A stretch of DNA of 64,000 bases from Bdellovibrio sp. (GTDB lineage Bacteria; Bdellovibrionota; Bdellovibrionia; Bdellovibrionales; Bdellovibrionaceae): assembly GCA_036676395.1 (NCBI GenBank), contig JAKFCY010000002.1:2432001-2496000 (forward strand), in the 5' to 3' direction. Positions 45,001-51,000 of the stretch are shown one piece after another. The number at the start of each line of letters is the position of its first letter. Position 1 is the stretch's first letter. A program made the position numbers.

Positions 45001-48000
45001 TAATGAAAAAAATCTTTTTGTTTTCAATGCTTGCGATGGCCGTTCATTTTACAGGTTGCAGTTCTGCACCTAAACTTGTTCCATCAACTGATTGGGAACA
45101 AAAAAGTGTCAGCGAATCTAAAGCCACTGAATCTGCTGTTCCATCTACGCCTTTGAATCCAGAAAAAAATGAAAATTTATTCTGCAGTTACAATGGCGGT
45201 TTAGAATTCGGGCGTCACGGTGGAATTTACACAGGCAACTGCCCTAAAACTTTAGAGCGCACATTTAAAAAAGGTTATCTCAAAGGAAAAGCTGAGTACG
45301 ACAAGCAGCAAGCTGAAAAAGGAAATAAATAATTTATGCAAAATTTTGACGTAGTAGTTATTGGTTCTGGTCCTGGTGGTTATGTAGCGGCTATTCGCTC
45401 TTCGCAGTTAGGTTTCAAAACAGCGATCATCGAGCGCGAAGCTCTAGGCGGTGTATGCTTAAACGTGGGTTGCATCCCTTCAAAAGCGATGATCACAGCG
45501 ACGCACATGTTACACCGTGCCCAGCATGATTTCAAAACTATGGGTTTAAATATCAAAGGCGGAATCGACGTTGATATGAAAACTTTAGTTAAATGGAAAC
45601 AATCTGTTTGCGATAAAATGTCAGGTGGTGTGAACCAACTTTTAAAAGGTAACACGGTTACTATTATTAAAGGTGAAGCGACTTTTAAAACGACTAAAGA
45701 ATTAACTGTTAAATCTTCATCTGGAATAGATTCAATCACAGCCAAACATTTCATTATTGCGACTGGCTCTCGCCCGATTGAAATTCCAGGCTTCCCGTTC
45801 GATGAAAAAGACATTTGTTCATCAACAGGCGCATTAAACTTCGACGAAATCCCTAAACGTGTTGTTGCCATCGGTGGTGGTTACATCGGTTTAGAAATCA
45901 CTTCTTACTTACGTAAATTAGGTTCTGAAGTTATCGTTGTTGAAGCTCAAACTTCATTATTAGCTGGCGTTGTTGATCCTGAGTGCGCAGCTGTTGTAAC
46001 TCGTAAAGCTGAAAAAGCCGGTATCCAATTTAAATTTGGCGCCAAAGCTAAAGGCCAAAAGAAAACCAAAGACGGTTACGAAGTCACTGTTGAAATCAAC
46101 GGTAAAGACGAAGTGATCAAATGTGATAAAATTTTAGTGACTGTTGGTCGTCGTCCAAACGGAGATCAAGCTAACATTAAGGGTGCAGGCATTGCAGTTG
46201 ATGAACGCGGCTTTATCAAAGTGGATGCCCAGCGCAGAACGAACATTGCGCACATTTTTGCAATCGGTGATATCTGTGGCCAACCAATGTTAGCACACAA
46301 AGCTTCGCACGAAGGCGTAATGGTTCCAGAAATTATCTCTGGCATTAACCGTGTGTACGACGCAAAAACAGTTCCTGCGGTGGTTTTCACAGACCCCGAA
46401 ATCGCATCTGCCGGCATGACTGAAGCTGAGTGCAAAGCCAAAGGTTTTAATGATTTATTAATCTCGAAATTTCCGTTCGCAGCCAACGGCCGTGCCGTAA
46501 GCATGATGGAAACTGATGGTTTCGTAAAAATGATCGCTGACAAGAAAACTCACGTTTTATTAGGCGTTCATATCGTCGGCCCAGAAGCTTCGAATTTAAT
46601 TTCAGAAGCGGCCTTAGCGATCGAAATGGGAGCGCGCATTGAAGATGTTGCTTTAACAATCCATCCTCACCCAACTTTAGGTGAAACAATGATGGAAGCT
46701 GCAGAAGCAACTCTTGGACATGCCATTCATATTATTCAAAAACCTTTAGGTGGCGCGAGCAAAAACGCTCACGCCTAAGCGCCAGCGCGCAGGATTTAAT
46801 CCTATGATGTTTGAAGACTGGGGCCTCATCTCTTATGAAGAGGCCATGAATAAACAGCTAGAATACGTTGAAAAACTTGATCAGCTATTATCACAGGGCG
46901 AATCGCACCCAGGCTATCTCATCTTTTGTTCTCACCCCGCAGTTGTTACGACCGGAAGACAAACTCAGCCCTCAGACATCTTTTCTTGGCAAGGCCCAGT
47001 TATCGAAGTTTCACGGGGCGGCAGAGCCACATACCATGGCCCTTCACAAATCGTAGTCTACCCGATTATCAGTTTAAAAAATTCTCGTGGCAAAAAAGCA
47101 GAATCTGATGAACCACGTGGTGTGCAAGATGTGCGCGGTTATTTACGCACATTTGAAAGTGCTATCGTTAAAACCTTAAAAGCATTCGGCATCACTGCTG
47201 AAGGTAAAACCCCACAAAAAATGCCCGGCCAACAAGTTGAAACCGATGAAACCGGCGTCTGGATGGGAAACCAAAAGATCGCTTCACTTGGCATCGCGGT
47301 AAAAAAATGGATCACCTATCACGGCGCTGCGATTAATTTCTTTAATGACCCTACAGCGTTCACAGGCATTAATCCTTGCGGCTTCAAAACTGAAACAATG
47401 ATTTCGGTTGAGAAAGTATTAGGCCAAGGCAAGCTCACCGCAGAACAATTCAAAAATACTCTTAGAAAAAATTTAGAATTATCTCTTTAAATATTTTGCT
47501 TATAAAACGGCGCTCTGTAGTTCAGTCAGCAATGTTGACTGAAACCCTGAGTGATGAAATTGCGTCACGAATTTTAGAAACAGCTTTTTTGTAGCCAGAA
47601 AGCGAATTTCAGCAATTGAAAATCGAAGATTTCTTTTTTTGCGGCGAATTTAATGTGGCGTTGATCAGAATCTGGCAAATTGCAGAATTTATTTTCTGTG
47701 TAACAGTGCTTATGCGTTTCGACAGCAAACTTTTTTATTTTACTGCATTTTGGCAGTTCACCGGCACGCGTATATTCACGTTCTAATTCGTCTTGCAGAC
47801 ACACTCTGATTTTATTTAAAAATTCTTTGCCACGCTCTGTGTATTTGTATTCTTCGACTTGGTATTTATGGCAGTAATGCGAACCGAACTGAATGTAATA
47901 CCCGTCGGTGCCGCAGTTTTCTTGCTTTTCTAGGCATTGATAATATTCACAGGTTCCCACAGCCATGGCGCAGTTGCTGGCGTGCAAACTGAGCACACCA

Positions 48001-51000
48001 AATATTCCAATGATAAAAATGACTAATCCCCGACCCATAGACAAGCTTGTACCCGAGAGAACATAGTGAATGCAATAACGATCCCTTCACCGAGTGAATA
48101 CTGCAAGATCGTCTAATGTTTTTACATGTATTTTACCGGGATTATTCAGCGCTAGTAGAAGCTTCGCCCTGAACGTTGCTGGCCATTACGATCGTTGCTT
48201 CGCCCTTAGCGACGACATCGCCATTAGCTTTTTTTGCAATCGTTTCAATAACGCCTAAACCACGGGTGCGGTGAAGTTTCGTGATTGTTAGTTCAAAAGT
48301 GATTTCATCGTCGATGAAAACCGGGTTGTAAAACTTTAACGTTTGGCCACGATAGATACCGCCTGTGCCAATCGCTGTGTTTAAACATCTAGAAATAATC
48401 GCGCCCAAGATCATCCCGTGCGCGATACGTTGTTTGAAAATTGTGTTTTTAGCGTACTCATCATCAAGATGGATCGGATTAAAGTCTCCAGACACTTCGG
48501 CAAATTGGCGAACCATTTTGTCGGTAATCACTTGTTTGACGACGGCTTTGTAGCCGACGTCTTTCGCGTTTTGTCTTGCTTTTTCTTCTTCTAAAAATTT
48601 TGATGATGACATCTTATTGTTATAGAATATTTGCCGCTAATTCGGCAAGTGCTGATCTTTCACCTTTAGTCAGCGTGACATGGGCCGCAATAGTTTGGCC
48701 TTTGAAACGCTCTACCGCATGGGTTAAGCCAGAATTTGCTGAATCTACGTACGGATTATCGATTTGATAAACGTCACCCGTTAAAATCACCTTAGTACCG
48801 CTACCAGCACGGGTAATAATCGTTTTAATCTCGTGCGGAGTTAAATTCTGCGCCTCATCCACGATTAAGTATTGCTTAGGAATACTGCGACCACGGATAT
48901 ACGTTAAAGGCTCAATATTTAACATGCCTTGATTGATAAGCTCTTGAGCGCGGCCAGCTGCTTTTTTATCAGCACCCATTAAGAACTCAACATTATCAAA
49001 AATTGGCTGCATCCACGGATTTAATTTCTGCTCAATATCACCTGGTAAATAACCGATATCACGGCCCATCGGAAAAATCGGGCGCGAAACTAATAGTCTT
49101 TGAAAACGGCCTTCATCAAGAGTTTTAAATAAACCCGCTGCGATCGCCAGTAATGTTTTACCAGTTCCCGCTTTACCTACTAAAGAAACCATCATGATTT
49201 CATCGTTTAATAAGGCATCTAGGGCAAAAGATTGCTCAACATTGCGTGCATGGATTCCCCAGATGCTGTCTGGTGGGTTAATCAATGGCACAACTGCTTT
49301 TTCTACTCCAGAAAAACGGCCGATCGCCGAATGATTTGGATTTGAAGCATCTTTTAAAATTACGTATTGGTTAATATATAATTTGTGATCAACAACTAAT
49401 TTTTTATCGCGGTAAAAAGTATCGATAGCATCAGGCTTAACTTCAATTTCAAGGTAACCTTCGTAAAGATCGCCCTGAGTAATATCTGAATTATCGTAAT
49501 CTTTTGCATTCACACCGTAAACATCAGCTTTAATACGTAAATTGATATCTTTAGAAATCAATTCAACTTTGTGGCGAGGAAACTGTTTTTGTAAAGCCAG
49601 CGCCGTACTTAAGATACGGTTATCTGCTTTGTTTTGGTCTAATTCAGAAGGAACACCGGCCAAAAACATATCTGTCGTGATGTAGACAATAGTTTCGTGG
49701 TTATCGATTTGTACACCTTGAGCTAAACTTCCTTTTGATCTTAGAACGTCAACGAAACGGCTGAACTGACGCGCATTGCGCCCGTTTTCACCTTGGTCAC
49801 GTTTAAATTTATCGATTTCTTCGATCACCGCAAACGGAATATGTAAATCAGCATCGCCAAATTTCAACAACGCAAAAGCGTCGAATAAAATAACGTTGGT
49901 ATCCAGAACAATTTTACGACGTTTAGGTTTTGCTTCTTTAGGTGTAGGATTAGAACTCAATTAGACCTCCGTTAAAGGATTGATGTGCGGCGCGTATAGC
50001 ACCTATGTAAATTGCACATCAAACCCTAACGAGAGTCAAAAGAGATTCAAAAATTTATTTTTATTTTTTATGCGATGGTTGGCCCTGCGACCATATCACC
50101 TTCATCAATTTGTAATCCTTCATTCAGAGAAATGATGAAATTTACGAAATGCTGAAGCGCAACATCTGAGGCAGAGCCCTTCATGTATTCAACACCGTGA
50201 CGAACGATTTCTTCGCTGTCATCGACAGTTGTGTGTTTCACTTTTACGTGAAGAGGAAAATAAGTTTTAGAATTTAAATAAACACGTAAAGCAATTTCTT
50301 CACCTACAGAGAATGAGCCCATGTGCTTTTCTAGCGAGAAAGATAAACCATCACCAGAAATGTCATACATCGAAACTTTGTATAAACCCTTTTCAGGCAA
50401 AACAAGCATGCCACTAATTAAGTCAGAAAGAATAGTTCTCTCAACTTGGCGACGTTCTTTTAAAAGAATCGGCTGAAACTTGCCTTTAAGCTCCTGCATA
50501 TTAAGCAAATTCTGATCAGCTGAGCCACCCGTTTGAATTGGATTAGTATTTACAGTTTTCAGACGTGATGTAATATCGATCACTTTTGACACTTCTTTTG
50601 CCATTGGTATCCCCCATATATGCAGAATACCTATCGGCAAAAAATTGTCTTAACTTGAGATCCAGAAATGATACAGTTTAAAGCATTATGTTGCGTTTAG
50701 CATCGCTTCTGGCGATCAGTCTCTTTATACACTTTCTCATGTACGAAGGCGTTTGGCTTCTGCCCGCGACACCTAGACTTTCGACGAGTGAAACAGAGAT
50801 CGAAATCATTGAAGAGAAAACTGCCGATCAGCGCGAAAAAGAATTCGATAAACCCGTCGTTAAAAATTCAAACGCGCCTGAACCCAAAGACATGTCAGAC
50901 CCGGCGCAGTTTATGGCTGAAAAAAATCAGCGTTTTGATAAACAAACTCGCGCGACAAAACTCGGTGCTTTTGAAAATCGCCAACCTTCACAAGGTGCTC

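Follow-up and report, generated by a model that had tools for sequence, protein, structure and literature searches.

The window, by which we mean the whole 64,000-nucleotide stretch of Bdellovibrio sp. DNA analysed here, carries on its minus strand a gene of the stanniocalcin (STC) family with the following features.

47574..48038, minus strand: whole coding sequence, 154 codons plus a TAA stop, from the ORF list and its translation
48038 (ATG start) and 47576-47574 (TAA stop), minus strand: ends of the same open reading frame
47979..48038, minus strand: codons 1-20, signal-peptide-like segment MGRGLVIFIIGIFGVLSLHA, read from the sequence by inspection
47577..47978, minus strand: codons 21-154, predicted mature STC-fold domain with ten cysteines, from alignments A1-A3, conservation, Pfam, and the STC2 sequence and fold matches

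This is a real gene, kept under purifying selection, with dN/dS values of 0.056 and 0.114 against two orthologues. It lies on a 2.7-Mb contig, where it is flanked by bacterial housekeeping genes, and complete single-contig genomes also carry an STC-family gene. The genome-wide survey's note had placed a 154-residue signal-peptide protein at 47574..48038; the ORF and its translation agree with this, and the signal segment is recognizable by inspection. The host is a predatory soil bacterium. As a weak hint, we note that in two soil metatranscriptome runs, from two studies, short contigs span parts of the ORF with 95-99% identity.

The N-terminus has the layout of a signal peptide as judged from the residues themselves, with Arg3, a hydrophobic core at positions 5-18 and the residues LHA ahead of Ser21. 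A comparable hydrophobic N-terminus is present in all 25 sequences of alignment A3, and codons 1-20 have low pLDDT in the AF2 model. The protein is probably exported.

The protein matches the Pfam stanniocalcin profile PF03298 (IPR004978) over residues 21-126 (profile positions 40-136 of 200) with E = 1.9e-6 and a score of 27.9 bits, above the curated cut-off of 23, which reproduces the match given in the earlier note. A six-frame search of the genome with the same profile also scored above the cut-off, at 25.7 bits, with matches in none of 14 control genomes. When a profile built from bacterial sequences (A1) was compared with the sequences in the PDB, STC2 accounted for the top three of four matches (E = 0.0039) with eight cysteines aligned; a second profile of 132 sequences (A2) matched STC2 only (three of three matches, E = 1.3e-5), with an alignment reaching the tenth cysteine (C10). 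Against named eukaryotic STC-type proteins, those of amphioxus, a mollusc, a nematode (W01A8.8), a fly, a rotifer, a diatom and a fungus, profile A1 gave E values between 7.8e-38 and about 1e-20; the best values belong to proteins with two tandem domains, whose scores add up. Besides the cysteines, the eukaryotic and bacterial domains have Y33, G43, Y47, G52, L81, H109, Y113 and D125 in common. Taken singly, only 40 of 132 diverse members reach E <= 0.01 with PF03298.

The AF2 model (pLDDT 80.7, pTM 0.74) contains six helices after the signal helix and predicts an STC2-type all-α fold. The four best Foldseek matches in the PDB are STC2 chains (8a7e_A, 8hgh_C, 7y5q_C and 8a7d_P), as the survey had also found, together with the six helices. 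Their E values are weak (0.11-1.4), while their probabilities are 0.82-1.0 and TMq values 0.42-0.58; the next matches have probabilities of at most 0.14. VIA-align comparison with 48,161 chains again placed STC2 on top, with Z scores of 11.3 (128 residues, 3.2 Å) and 10.3, followed by 6.8. The tool's own documentation cautions that helical bundles can reach Z scores under about 13 by chance, but we give weight to this match since it accords with what the sequences show and lies about 4 Z units above the rest. A separate model of a paralogue also returned STC2, with VIA Z scores of 10.3 and 9.8. In the passage cited, Kobbero et al. (2022; PMC9579167) report the STC2 fold from no other protein.

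The ten cysteines (C23, C30, C35, C42, C56, C80, C98, C112, C119 and C153) are invariant in all 18 clusters of 137-157 residues, as the survey had reported, and within the mature domain Y33, Y47, L81, the H109-x-x-C112-Y113 motif and D125 are also conserved. The ten-cysteine pattern by which Roch & Sherwood (2011) recognize the family is present. The spacing is 7,5,7,14,24,18,14,7,34, and 107 of 150 representatives share 7,5,7,14,24,x,14,7,34. For comparison, the published description of human STC1 (PMC2744999) gives cysteines 45, 54, 59, 65, 74, 98, 114 and 128, with gaps of 9,5,6,9,24,16,14 and bonds C45-C59 (C1-C3), C54-C74, C65-C114 and C98-C128. In the HMMER alignments C2-C9 (profile A1) and C5-C10 (profile A2) fall on STC2 cysteines. 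The first and third cysteines are jointly absent in 21 of the 150 representatives, as would be expected of a C1-C3 bond; co-loss of the same pair is reported for Caenorhabditis (Roch & Sherwood, 2011). Within the family connectivity of 1-3, 2-5, 4-7, 6-8 and 9-10, this co-loss bears, indirectly, on the 1-3 bond alone. The pairing is likely to be that of the animal proteins, with five disulfides including C1-C3. Because the Pfam score, the profile matches, the fold match and the cysteine pattern all agree, the 154-residue protein is a genuine member of the STC family, and the survey's description of it as a true prokaryotic stanniocalcin is borne out by sequence, cysteine pattern and fold.

This member does not stand alone. 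Whereas the survey had counted 18 clusters, the family extends to 1824 clusters (50% identity) at E <= 1e-3. Among the 384 genomes from the order, 125 have a profile match, this one included, as do 41 of 121 genera; the family Bdellovibrionaceae contributes 92 of 181 genomes. These figures are close to the survey's 123 of 383 and identical to its 92 of 181, whereas its entry of the family at mark 0 in 0 of 189,784 genomes was not reproduced. Among 401 genomes sampled across the phylum, 112 have a match, several families being represented and a second family alone accounting for 55 of 100; many of the carriers are single-contig genomes. There are at least four architectures (single-domain, with an N-terminal extension, with a C-terminal extension and in some cases a lipoprotein-type signal, and lacking C1), and a genome may hold several STC-like paralogues, with lipoprotein-type variants among them. 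In a FastTree analysis of 228 domains, 189 fall on one side, where 37 rows are known to be Bdellovibrionota and none is known to be eukaryotic, a split with weak support (65), and the short bacterial type stands apart, again with weak support, from all 21 labelled eukaryotic domains.

Bacterial matches were noted before: as the survey was aware, Roch & Sherwood (2011) listed two accessions, NP_968019 and YP_782912, set them aside as possible horizontal transfers and, in the passage concerned, left them `not considered further'. Both are like the present protein in being bacterial and recognized by STC profiles. The former is presumably from Bdellovibrio bacteriovorus HD100, to judge from its accession range. 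The survey's claim of a new bacterial clade in a family treated as eukaryotic holds in part: the extent of the radiation is not described in the literature searched, but two bacterial accessions had been on record since 2011.

In our view, the most probable interpretation is that this is a genuine exported, disulfide-locked member of the STC family that represents its minimal core, belongs to an old Bdellovibrionota radiation and acts as a non-enzymatic binder. The protein would be exported by the Sec route, leaving about 134 mature residues to form an STC2-type helical bundle locked by five disulfides. This core lacks the C-terminal dimerization helices, the 11th cysteine of the vertebrate proteins and the STC2 residue Cys120, and the gene would belong, as a single orthologue group, to a radiation that is large, old and diversified. 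Outside the cytoplasm, whether in the periplasm, on the cell surface or in the prey, it would bind a partner other than a pappalysin. Stoichiometric binding is the most likely mode because there is no catalytic motif and because the vertebrate STCs, too, work through binding, and an exported binding module without enzymatic activity is our best guess at its role.

The treatment of the two accessions in 2011 implies another origin, namely that such genes are recent acquisitions from a eukaryote, or assembly contaminants, without function. Transfer was the explanation proposed for the two bacterial matches then known (Roch & Sherwood, 2011), and the accounts cited here otherwise treat the family as a eukaryotic one. 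We regard this as highly improbable. It is contradicted by the spread of the family through 41 of the order's 121 genera and through several of the phylum's families, often in single-contig genomes, and it fits poorly with the position of the gene inside a 2.7-Mb contig amid bacterial housekeeping genes, with purifying selection and with the very large diversity on the bacterial side (189 of 228 domains, from FastTree only, support 65). The Bdellovibrionota are predators of other bacteria, and the protein could instead be an envelope-directed effector or targeting module that binds peptidoglycan, a membrane lipid or a protein of the envelope and has a part in predation, for instance in recognizing prey or in modifying their periplasm. 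The enrichment in a predator phylum (112 of 401 sampled genomes) and the multiple, partly lipoprotein-type paralogues are in keeping with such a role. So are the tandem STC domains that in amphioxus (two species, newer gene models included) are fused to Peptidase_M15_4, a domain of peptidoglycan-peptidase type that the sources name `lysozyme g/LYG2', and to phospholipase A2. In two metagenomic clusters that are 38% identical, an eCIS_core domain and a peptidoglycan-binding OmpA-like domain precede the STC domain; eCIS_core/DUF4157 proteins bear a variable effector domain at their C-terminus. All of this, however, is architecture by association, the fused partners are heterogeneous (phospholipase A2, M15_4, OmpA and, in P0135, a PEMT/ICMT membrane methyltransferase), the amphioxus gene models could be merged neighbours, and single-domain STCs are reported from many non-predatory eukaryotes. 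We consider this role unlikely.

The survey's own proposal was a tight-binding inhibitor of a metzincin, from the host or its prey, that would work in the periplasm or bdelloplast as STC1 and STC2 do on pappalysins. The genome offers more candidate targets than the three that the survey listed: eight ORFs contain HExxHxxGxxH, six of them with a metzincin-type Pfam match (three DUF4953 Met-zincins, two M10-like and one reprolysin-like). The set of genomes with close orthologues of the reprolysin-like lipoprotein (G000:C3:15042-16433) coincides with the six closest relatives in which the short STC gene is present, and elsewhere STC domains are fused to domains of zinc-peptidase type, namely M15_4 in amphioxus and, in the two metagenomic clusters, eCIS_core bearing HExxH. 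The reprolysin-like match, however, comprises seven genomes of one tight clade and so is not independent; over the family the gene occurs in 12 of 181 genomes against 92 of 181 for the STC-like gene, and in genus g4 in 0 of 44 against 32 of 44. An M10-like metzincin is found in 49 of 51 genomes of the genus irrespective of STC, and another of the host's metzincins (7 of 51 genus genomes) follows a pattern unrelated to it. Among the three own metzincins compared, with the three DUF4953 proteins left aside, none co-occurs with the STC-like gene beyond the one tight clade. The 20 neighbour genes scanned (seven of ten fetched relatives' loci) include no metzincin, their sole peptidase being a cytosolic-type M17 aminopeptidase, and a common gene context (lipB/MaoC/PhoH, in L001-L008) is confined to the closest relatives, the surroundings elsewhere being unrelated housekeeping genes. 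Neither linkage nor co-occurrence thus yielded the protease partner expected of a proteinaceous metzincin inhibitor. As the survey had stated, the genome has no Peptidase_M43 (PF05572) above the cut-off, the best score of 21.7 bits lying inside other metzincins.

The M2 domain and C domain/LNR3 of PAPP-A are, as far as is known, animal-specific modules, and the residue aligned with STC2 Cys120 is alanine here. Inhibition of PAPP-A and PAPP-A2 is the only established biochemical activity given for the STC family in the sources cited (PMC11925022, PMC9579167), but in the complex as described by Kobbero et al. (2022; PMC9579167) STC2 leaves PAPP-A's active-site cleft unoccupied and makes its contacts with M2 (C120-C732) and with the C domain/LNR3. 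Even an interaction between invertebrate STC and invPAPP-A is judged unlikely in the account of Kjeldsen & Oxvig (2025). Metzincin inhibition is therefore, in our estimation, quite unlikely, and the evidence speaks against the link on which a bacterial model of the STC-metzincin mechanism would rest.

Research on stanniocalcins deals with them as hormones of vertebrates and as inhibitors of PAPP-A. The finding that the family is common and diversified in a bacterial phylum, where it reaches about 30% of the genomes sampled, takes several architectures and forms hundreds of sequence clusters, alters the evolutionary picture and provides simple organisms, amenable to culture, in which what the STC fold does at its core could be probed. 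A review of October 2026 still traces the origin of STC, in the passage cited, to `single-celled eukaryotes', and its main text contains neither the word bacteria nor prokaryot*. More speculatively, and with a low probability in our judgement, STC may be no eukaryotic invention: there would be a large, ancient radiation in the Bdellovibrionota, the family could have passed between bacteria and eukaryotes at an early stage of the latter, and the short bacterial form would keep the ancestral function, that of an exported binder, locked by disulfides, which acts on an extracytoplasmic hydrolase in predation by controlling or targeting it. If true, it would offer a genetically tractable model of the role of STC before the IGF/PAPP-A axis.

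Comparison with human STC2 (PDB entries 8A7D/8A7E and 7Y5Q/8HGH) indicates a like all-helical bundle, with VIA Z scores of 11.3 and 10.3 over 128-131 residues, and HMMER aligns C2-C10 with its cysteines; sequence identity is 16-22%. Human STC2 and STC1 are secreted, and export of the bacterial protein is predicted from its N-terminus. The 11th cysteine and C-terminal homodimer helices of the vertebrate subtype are absent; the protein has ten cysteines and ends in the C10 region, at about STC2 residue 182, and thus lacks most of the reported E169-C211 dimer interface and the dimerizing cysteine. The near-universal His109 is a glutamine in STC2. Unlike the hosts of STC1 and STC2, this bacterium has no pappalysin (no PF05572 above the cut-off) as a cognate enzyme with M43, M and LNR3 modules, and its STC protein has no Cys120 equivalent; no IGFBP or IGF system is known in bacteria. 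There is also a close resemblance to the non-vertebrate homologues (amphioxus STCc, nematode W01A8.8, and the fungal and diatom proteins; PF03298). The bacterial protein differs from these in its host and in being a single domain of 154 residues, the labelled eukaryotic matches being mostly tandem or fused, but they too have a signal peptide ahead of a core that is about 130 residues long, with ten cysteines at nearly identical spacing and the shared motifs C-x-[FY]-Y-x-C-x-E, C-G and H-x-x-C-Y.

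The stanniocalcin (STC)-like gene lies on a 2.7 Mb contig of a 99.3%-complete genome, with lipB on one side and a gene for a MaoC-type dehydratase on the other. The features of this part of the window are as follows.

43306-45003, E2 with two lipoyl domains
45003-45332, small DUF2799 lipoprotein-like ORF
45336-46778, E3 dihydrolipoyl dehydrogenase
46750-47490, lipB, convergent with the STC-like gene
47574..48038, minus strand, STC-like ORF, translated into 154 residues
48142-48612, minus strand, MaoC-type dehydratase
48620-49960, minus strand, PIN-PhoH ATPase
50068-50640, minus strand, PilZ-domain protein
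50688-51491, plus strand, TonB_C-like protein

The genes from E2 to lipB, including the small DUF2799 ORF, make up a 2-oxoacid dehydrogenase cluster (43306-47490), of which lipB is the last. Between lipB and the STC-like gene we note an 8 bp inverted repeat, TTCAGTCA … TGACTGAA, with a 7 nt loop (47521-47543), which was not called by the terminator scan because no T-run follows it; the scan for promoters and terminators around the gene gave nothing over the shuffled expectation. Short soil metatranscriptome contigs from two runs in two studies match portions of the ORF with 95-99% identity. As DNA carry-over is possible, these are a weak hint that the gene is transcribed, and the uncovered portions carry no meaning.

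By inspection, the N-terminus of the protein consists of a basic residue, a 14-residue hydrophobic stretch and a terminal L-H-A, which has the layout of a putative Sec signal peptide. Searching 5.8 billion proteins by word index returned 18 clusters of 137-157 residues with 58-100% identity, one of which is named 'hypothetical protein [Bdellovibrionota bacterium]'. In the alignment of these clusters the cysteines at positions 23, 30, 35, 42, 56, 80, 98, 112, 119 and 153 are invariant (18/18). The signal-like N-terminus and ten conserved cysteines described in the genome-wide survey's note are confirmed. At the codon level, dN/dS was 0.056 and 0.114 against two orthologues of the same length; a third comparison was saturated.

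The protein matches Pfam family PF03298 with 27.9 bits, above the curated cut-off of 23. In a six-frame search of the genome this gene was the sole match to PF03298, and none of 14 control genomes gave one. The profile built from the 18 close sequences was run against all PDB chain sequences and returned four matches at E ≤ 10, of which the top three are stanniocalcin-2 (STC2; E = 0.0039), with eight of the cysteines aligned. When the profile was built from 132 diverse relatives, STC2 accounted for all three matches (E = 1.3e-5) and the alignment extended through the tenth cysteine. When 1.84 billion cluster representatives were searched exhaustively with HMMER, 1824 proteins reached E ≤ 1e-3, 880 of them ≤ 1e-10 and seven ≤ 1e-30. 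Exact-sequence look-ups of ten multi-domain proteins from the top 150 gave eukaryotic names for eight, from amphioxus, clam, nematode (the 'W01A8.8' protein), fly, rotifer and diatom; the other two are unnamed. One further representative is fungal. The eukaryotic proteins match the purely bacterial profile with E values from 7.8e-38 to about 1e-20. We do not take a value near 1e-38 as a mark of special closeness, since the strongest matches hold two tandem domains and their scores are additive; the closest named single-domain representatives are from Pseudobdellovibrio metagenome-assembled genomes. Besides the cysteines, Tyr33, Gly43, Tyr47, Gly52, Leu81, His109, Tyr113 and Asp125 are common to the labelled eukaryotic and bacterial domains.

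The cysteine spacing of the protein is 7,5,7,14,24,18,14,7,34, and the pattern 7,5,7,14,~24,x,14,7,~34 is present in 107 of the 150 best representatives. Another 21 have eight cysteines, C1 and C3 both being absent, and the remaining 22 have other variant patterns or more than one domain. Human STC1 is described (PMC2744999) with cysteine gaps of 9,5,6,9,24,16,14 and the disulfides C45-C59, C54-C74, C65-C114 and C98-C128, the first of which is C1-C3. The joint loss of C1 and C3 in a bacterial subgroup is indirect evidence, from sequence, that the bacterial proteins may share this C1-C3 pairing. A passage of Roch & Sherwood (2011) describes the same joint loss in Caenorhabditis.

The AlphaFold2 model computed from the 18-sequence alignment (pLDDT 80.7, pTM 0.74) has six helices after the signal helix. 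In a Foldseek search of the PDB the top four matches are STC2 chains (E 0.11-1.4, probability 0.82-1.0, TMq 0.42-0.58), and matches below these have probabilities of at most 0.14 and r.m.s. differences above 5 Å. VIA-align, which is independent of Foldseek, placed STC2 first and second among 48,161 representative chains with Z scores of 11.3 (128 residues, 3.2 Å) and 10.3, the next being 6.8. Helical bundles may reach such scores by chance, but we give weight to this match because it agrees with the sequence evidence, extends over the entire mature protein and is well separated from all others. A 322-residue paralogue was modelled separately (pLDDT 82.4), and its C-terminal half again matches STC2, with Z scores of 10.3 and 9.8. 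Kobbero et al. (2022; PMC9579167) state that no other protein of the STC2 fold had been found. The predicted resemblance to STC2 noted in the survey holds by two methods. With the Pfam match, the PDB profile matches, the cysteine pattern and the fold all in agreement, the protein is a true stanniocalcin family member, as had been proposed, and its place in the family could be made firmer only by experiment.

Within the order Bdellovibrionales, 125 of 384 genomes contain a match to the profile (88 of the 274 of high quality; 41 of 121 genera), including 92 of 181 in the family; in some of these genomes there are two or three copies. With a broader profile, matches occur in 112 of 401 genomes sampled evenly across the phylum, including 55 of the 100 from a second large family. 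Atlas clusters of 129 and 72 members are mostly from Bdellovibrionota and another is mostly nematode; the range beyond Bdellovibrionota rests on unnamed metagenomic proteins, this Atlas summary and a 2011 accession.

Several architectures occur: a short form of about 155 residues; a long form of about 300-320 residues with a confidently modelled N-terminal domain; forms extended at the C-terminus by about 140 residues, two of them with lipoprotein-type signals; and, in the second family, a form that is extended at the N-terminus and lacks C1. The long form is found at three relatives' loci (L031:2349-3257, minus strand; L032:1737-2675, plus strand; L033:1996-2961, minus strand) and in the cluster representatives P0059, P0071, P0087, P0108 and P0140. 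Its conserved N-terminal domain of about 150 residues (pLDDT about 90) precedes the STC domain and has β-strands followed by helices and a W-D-H motif. Fold searches with the whole model were dominated by matches to the STC domain. In loci L034, L035 and L041-L044 the STC domain is N-terminal and the extension is helical, the lipoprotein-type signals being those of L034 and L041 (…LIGC and …ILGC). Neither the N-terminal nor the C-terminal extensions gave a Pfam or NCBIfam match, and an Atlas search with the N-terminal extension gave no usable match. Nearly all matches in a homologue search with the 132-relative set were close relatives, with P0185 the single match for longer proteins.

A FastTree phylogeny of 228 domains contains a weak split (support 65) that sets all 21 labelled eukaryotic domains on one side. 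The same side includes seven unlabelled rows and 11 divergent paralogues from Bdellovibrionota; the other side holds 189 rows, of which 37 are labelled Bdellovibrionota and none is a labelled eukaryote. The domains are short and the tree is crude and unrooted, with many open forks and long branches, and the sole conclusion that we draw from it is that the bacterial side appears deep and diverse. Such depth does not look like that of a recent graft or a contaminant.

A full-text search found no literature joining 'stanniocalcin' with 'Bdellovibrio', and among the papers listed for the family (PF03298, IPR004978) none concerns a bacterial protein, as judged from titles and abstracts. Neither 'bacteria' nor 'prokaryot' occurs in the main text of an October 2026 review (PMC13675253), there is no NCBIfam model for the family, and NCBI labels the proteins 'hypothetical'. 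Bacterial hits were nevertheless already in print in 2011, as the survey had acknowledged and as a passage of Roch & Sherwood (2011) bears out. What we did not find in the main texts is the abundance, diversification and fold confirmation of bacterial STCs; the 2011 and 2025 supplements may list more.

The protein has no catalytic motif, and the sole known activity of the STC fold is binding, so we infer that it would act as an exported, disulfide-stabilised binding module. Fusions of the STC domain elsewhere provide one lead. In two amphioxus species, including newer gene models of 866 and 686 residues, tandem STC domains are fused to phospholipase A2 or to Peptidase_M15_4, which the sources label lysozyme g/LYG2; four such proteins (P0072, P0173, P0096 and P0171) have a cysteine-rich repeat between the STC and partner domains. 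Two metagenomic proteins that are 38% identical, P0119 (514 residues) and P0185 (419 residues), combine eCIS_core (HExxH), an OmpA-like peptidoglycan-binding domain and a C-terminal STC domain. Both are Arg/Ala-rich with no obvious signal peptide, and are probably from another, high-GC phylum. A PEMT/ICMT membrane methyltransferase is joined to an STC domain in one further protein. At two second-family loci a thioredoxin gene lies directly upstream of the STC gene on the same strand and may encode a dedicated oxidoreductase; the thioredoxin-domain genes (L061:5385-5918, plus strand; L062:6988-7419, minus strand) have an N-terminal extension. These fusions and neighbours hint loosely at a connection with cell-envelope hydrolases and oxidative folding, and would fit the STC domain as a module that targets or regulates enzymes acting on the envelope, but an envelope-directed role in predation itself we consider unlikely.

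The survey's note had offered, as its boldest reading, inhibition of a metzincin, which we regard as distinctly improbable. It had counted three metzincins; we find eight ORFs with HExxHxxGxxH, six of which have metzincin-type Pfam matches: three DUF4953 'Met-zincin' ORFs (1747, 821 and 896 residues), two M10-like ORFs (253 and 406 residues) and a reprolysin-like lipoprotein (464 residues). The largest, of 1747 residues, lies outside the window about 95 kb upstream (contig C2, 2379160-2384400), with HELGHAFGLMH at residue 1025. Peptidase_M43 has no match at cut-off in the genome. The lipB/MaoC/PIN-PhoH context is confined to the closest relatives (L001-L008); at ten loci taken more widely, from other genera and from the second family, the neighbours differ. 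No metzincin is found among 20 neighbouring genes scanned from seven of these ten, which encode a chemoreceptor, LysR, a PEP-synthase regulator, QueA, SelO, an M17 aminopeptidase, thioredoxin and others, or have no Pfam match. Co-occurrence was surveyed for three of the six, the two M10-like genes and the reprolysin-like gene. An M10-like gene is present in 49 of 51 genomes of the genus regardless of STC, and that of 406 residues in seven of 51 in a pattern unlike that of STC. For the reprolysin-like gene, the genomes with close orthologues are precisely the six nearest relatives that carry the short STC gene, but these form one tight clade; the reprolysin-like gene occurs in 12 of 181 family genomes against 92 for STC, and in one genus in none of 44 against 32.

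To our knowledge, the M2 and C domain/LNR3 modules of PAPP-A are absent from bacterial metzincins. It is through these, by C120-C732 in M2 and by C domain/LNR3, that STC2 grips PAPP-A according to Kobbero et al. (2022), who place the contacts outside the catalytic cleft; the cleft is empty in the complex and peptide is still cleaved. Even the pairing of invertebrate STC with invertebrate PAPP-A is judged unlikely in a passage of Kjeldsen & Oxvig (2025). Gene context, co-occurrence, the published mechanism and the missing vertebrate features therefore leave the proposed inhibitor mechanism unsupported. Compared with human STC2, the Bdellovibrio protein has alanine at the position of C120 and stops before most of the dimer interface, a difference that also weighs against that mechanism. 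The gene itself is genuine, and it truly belongs to a known family, here in a group of hosts where that family was not expected.
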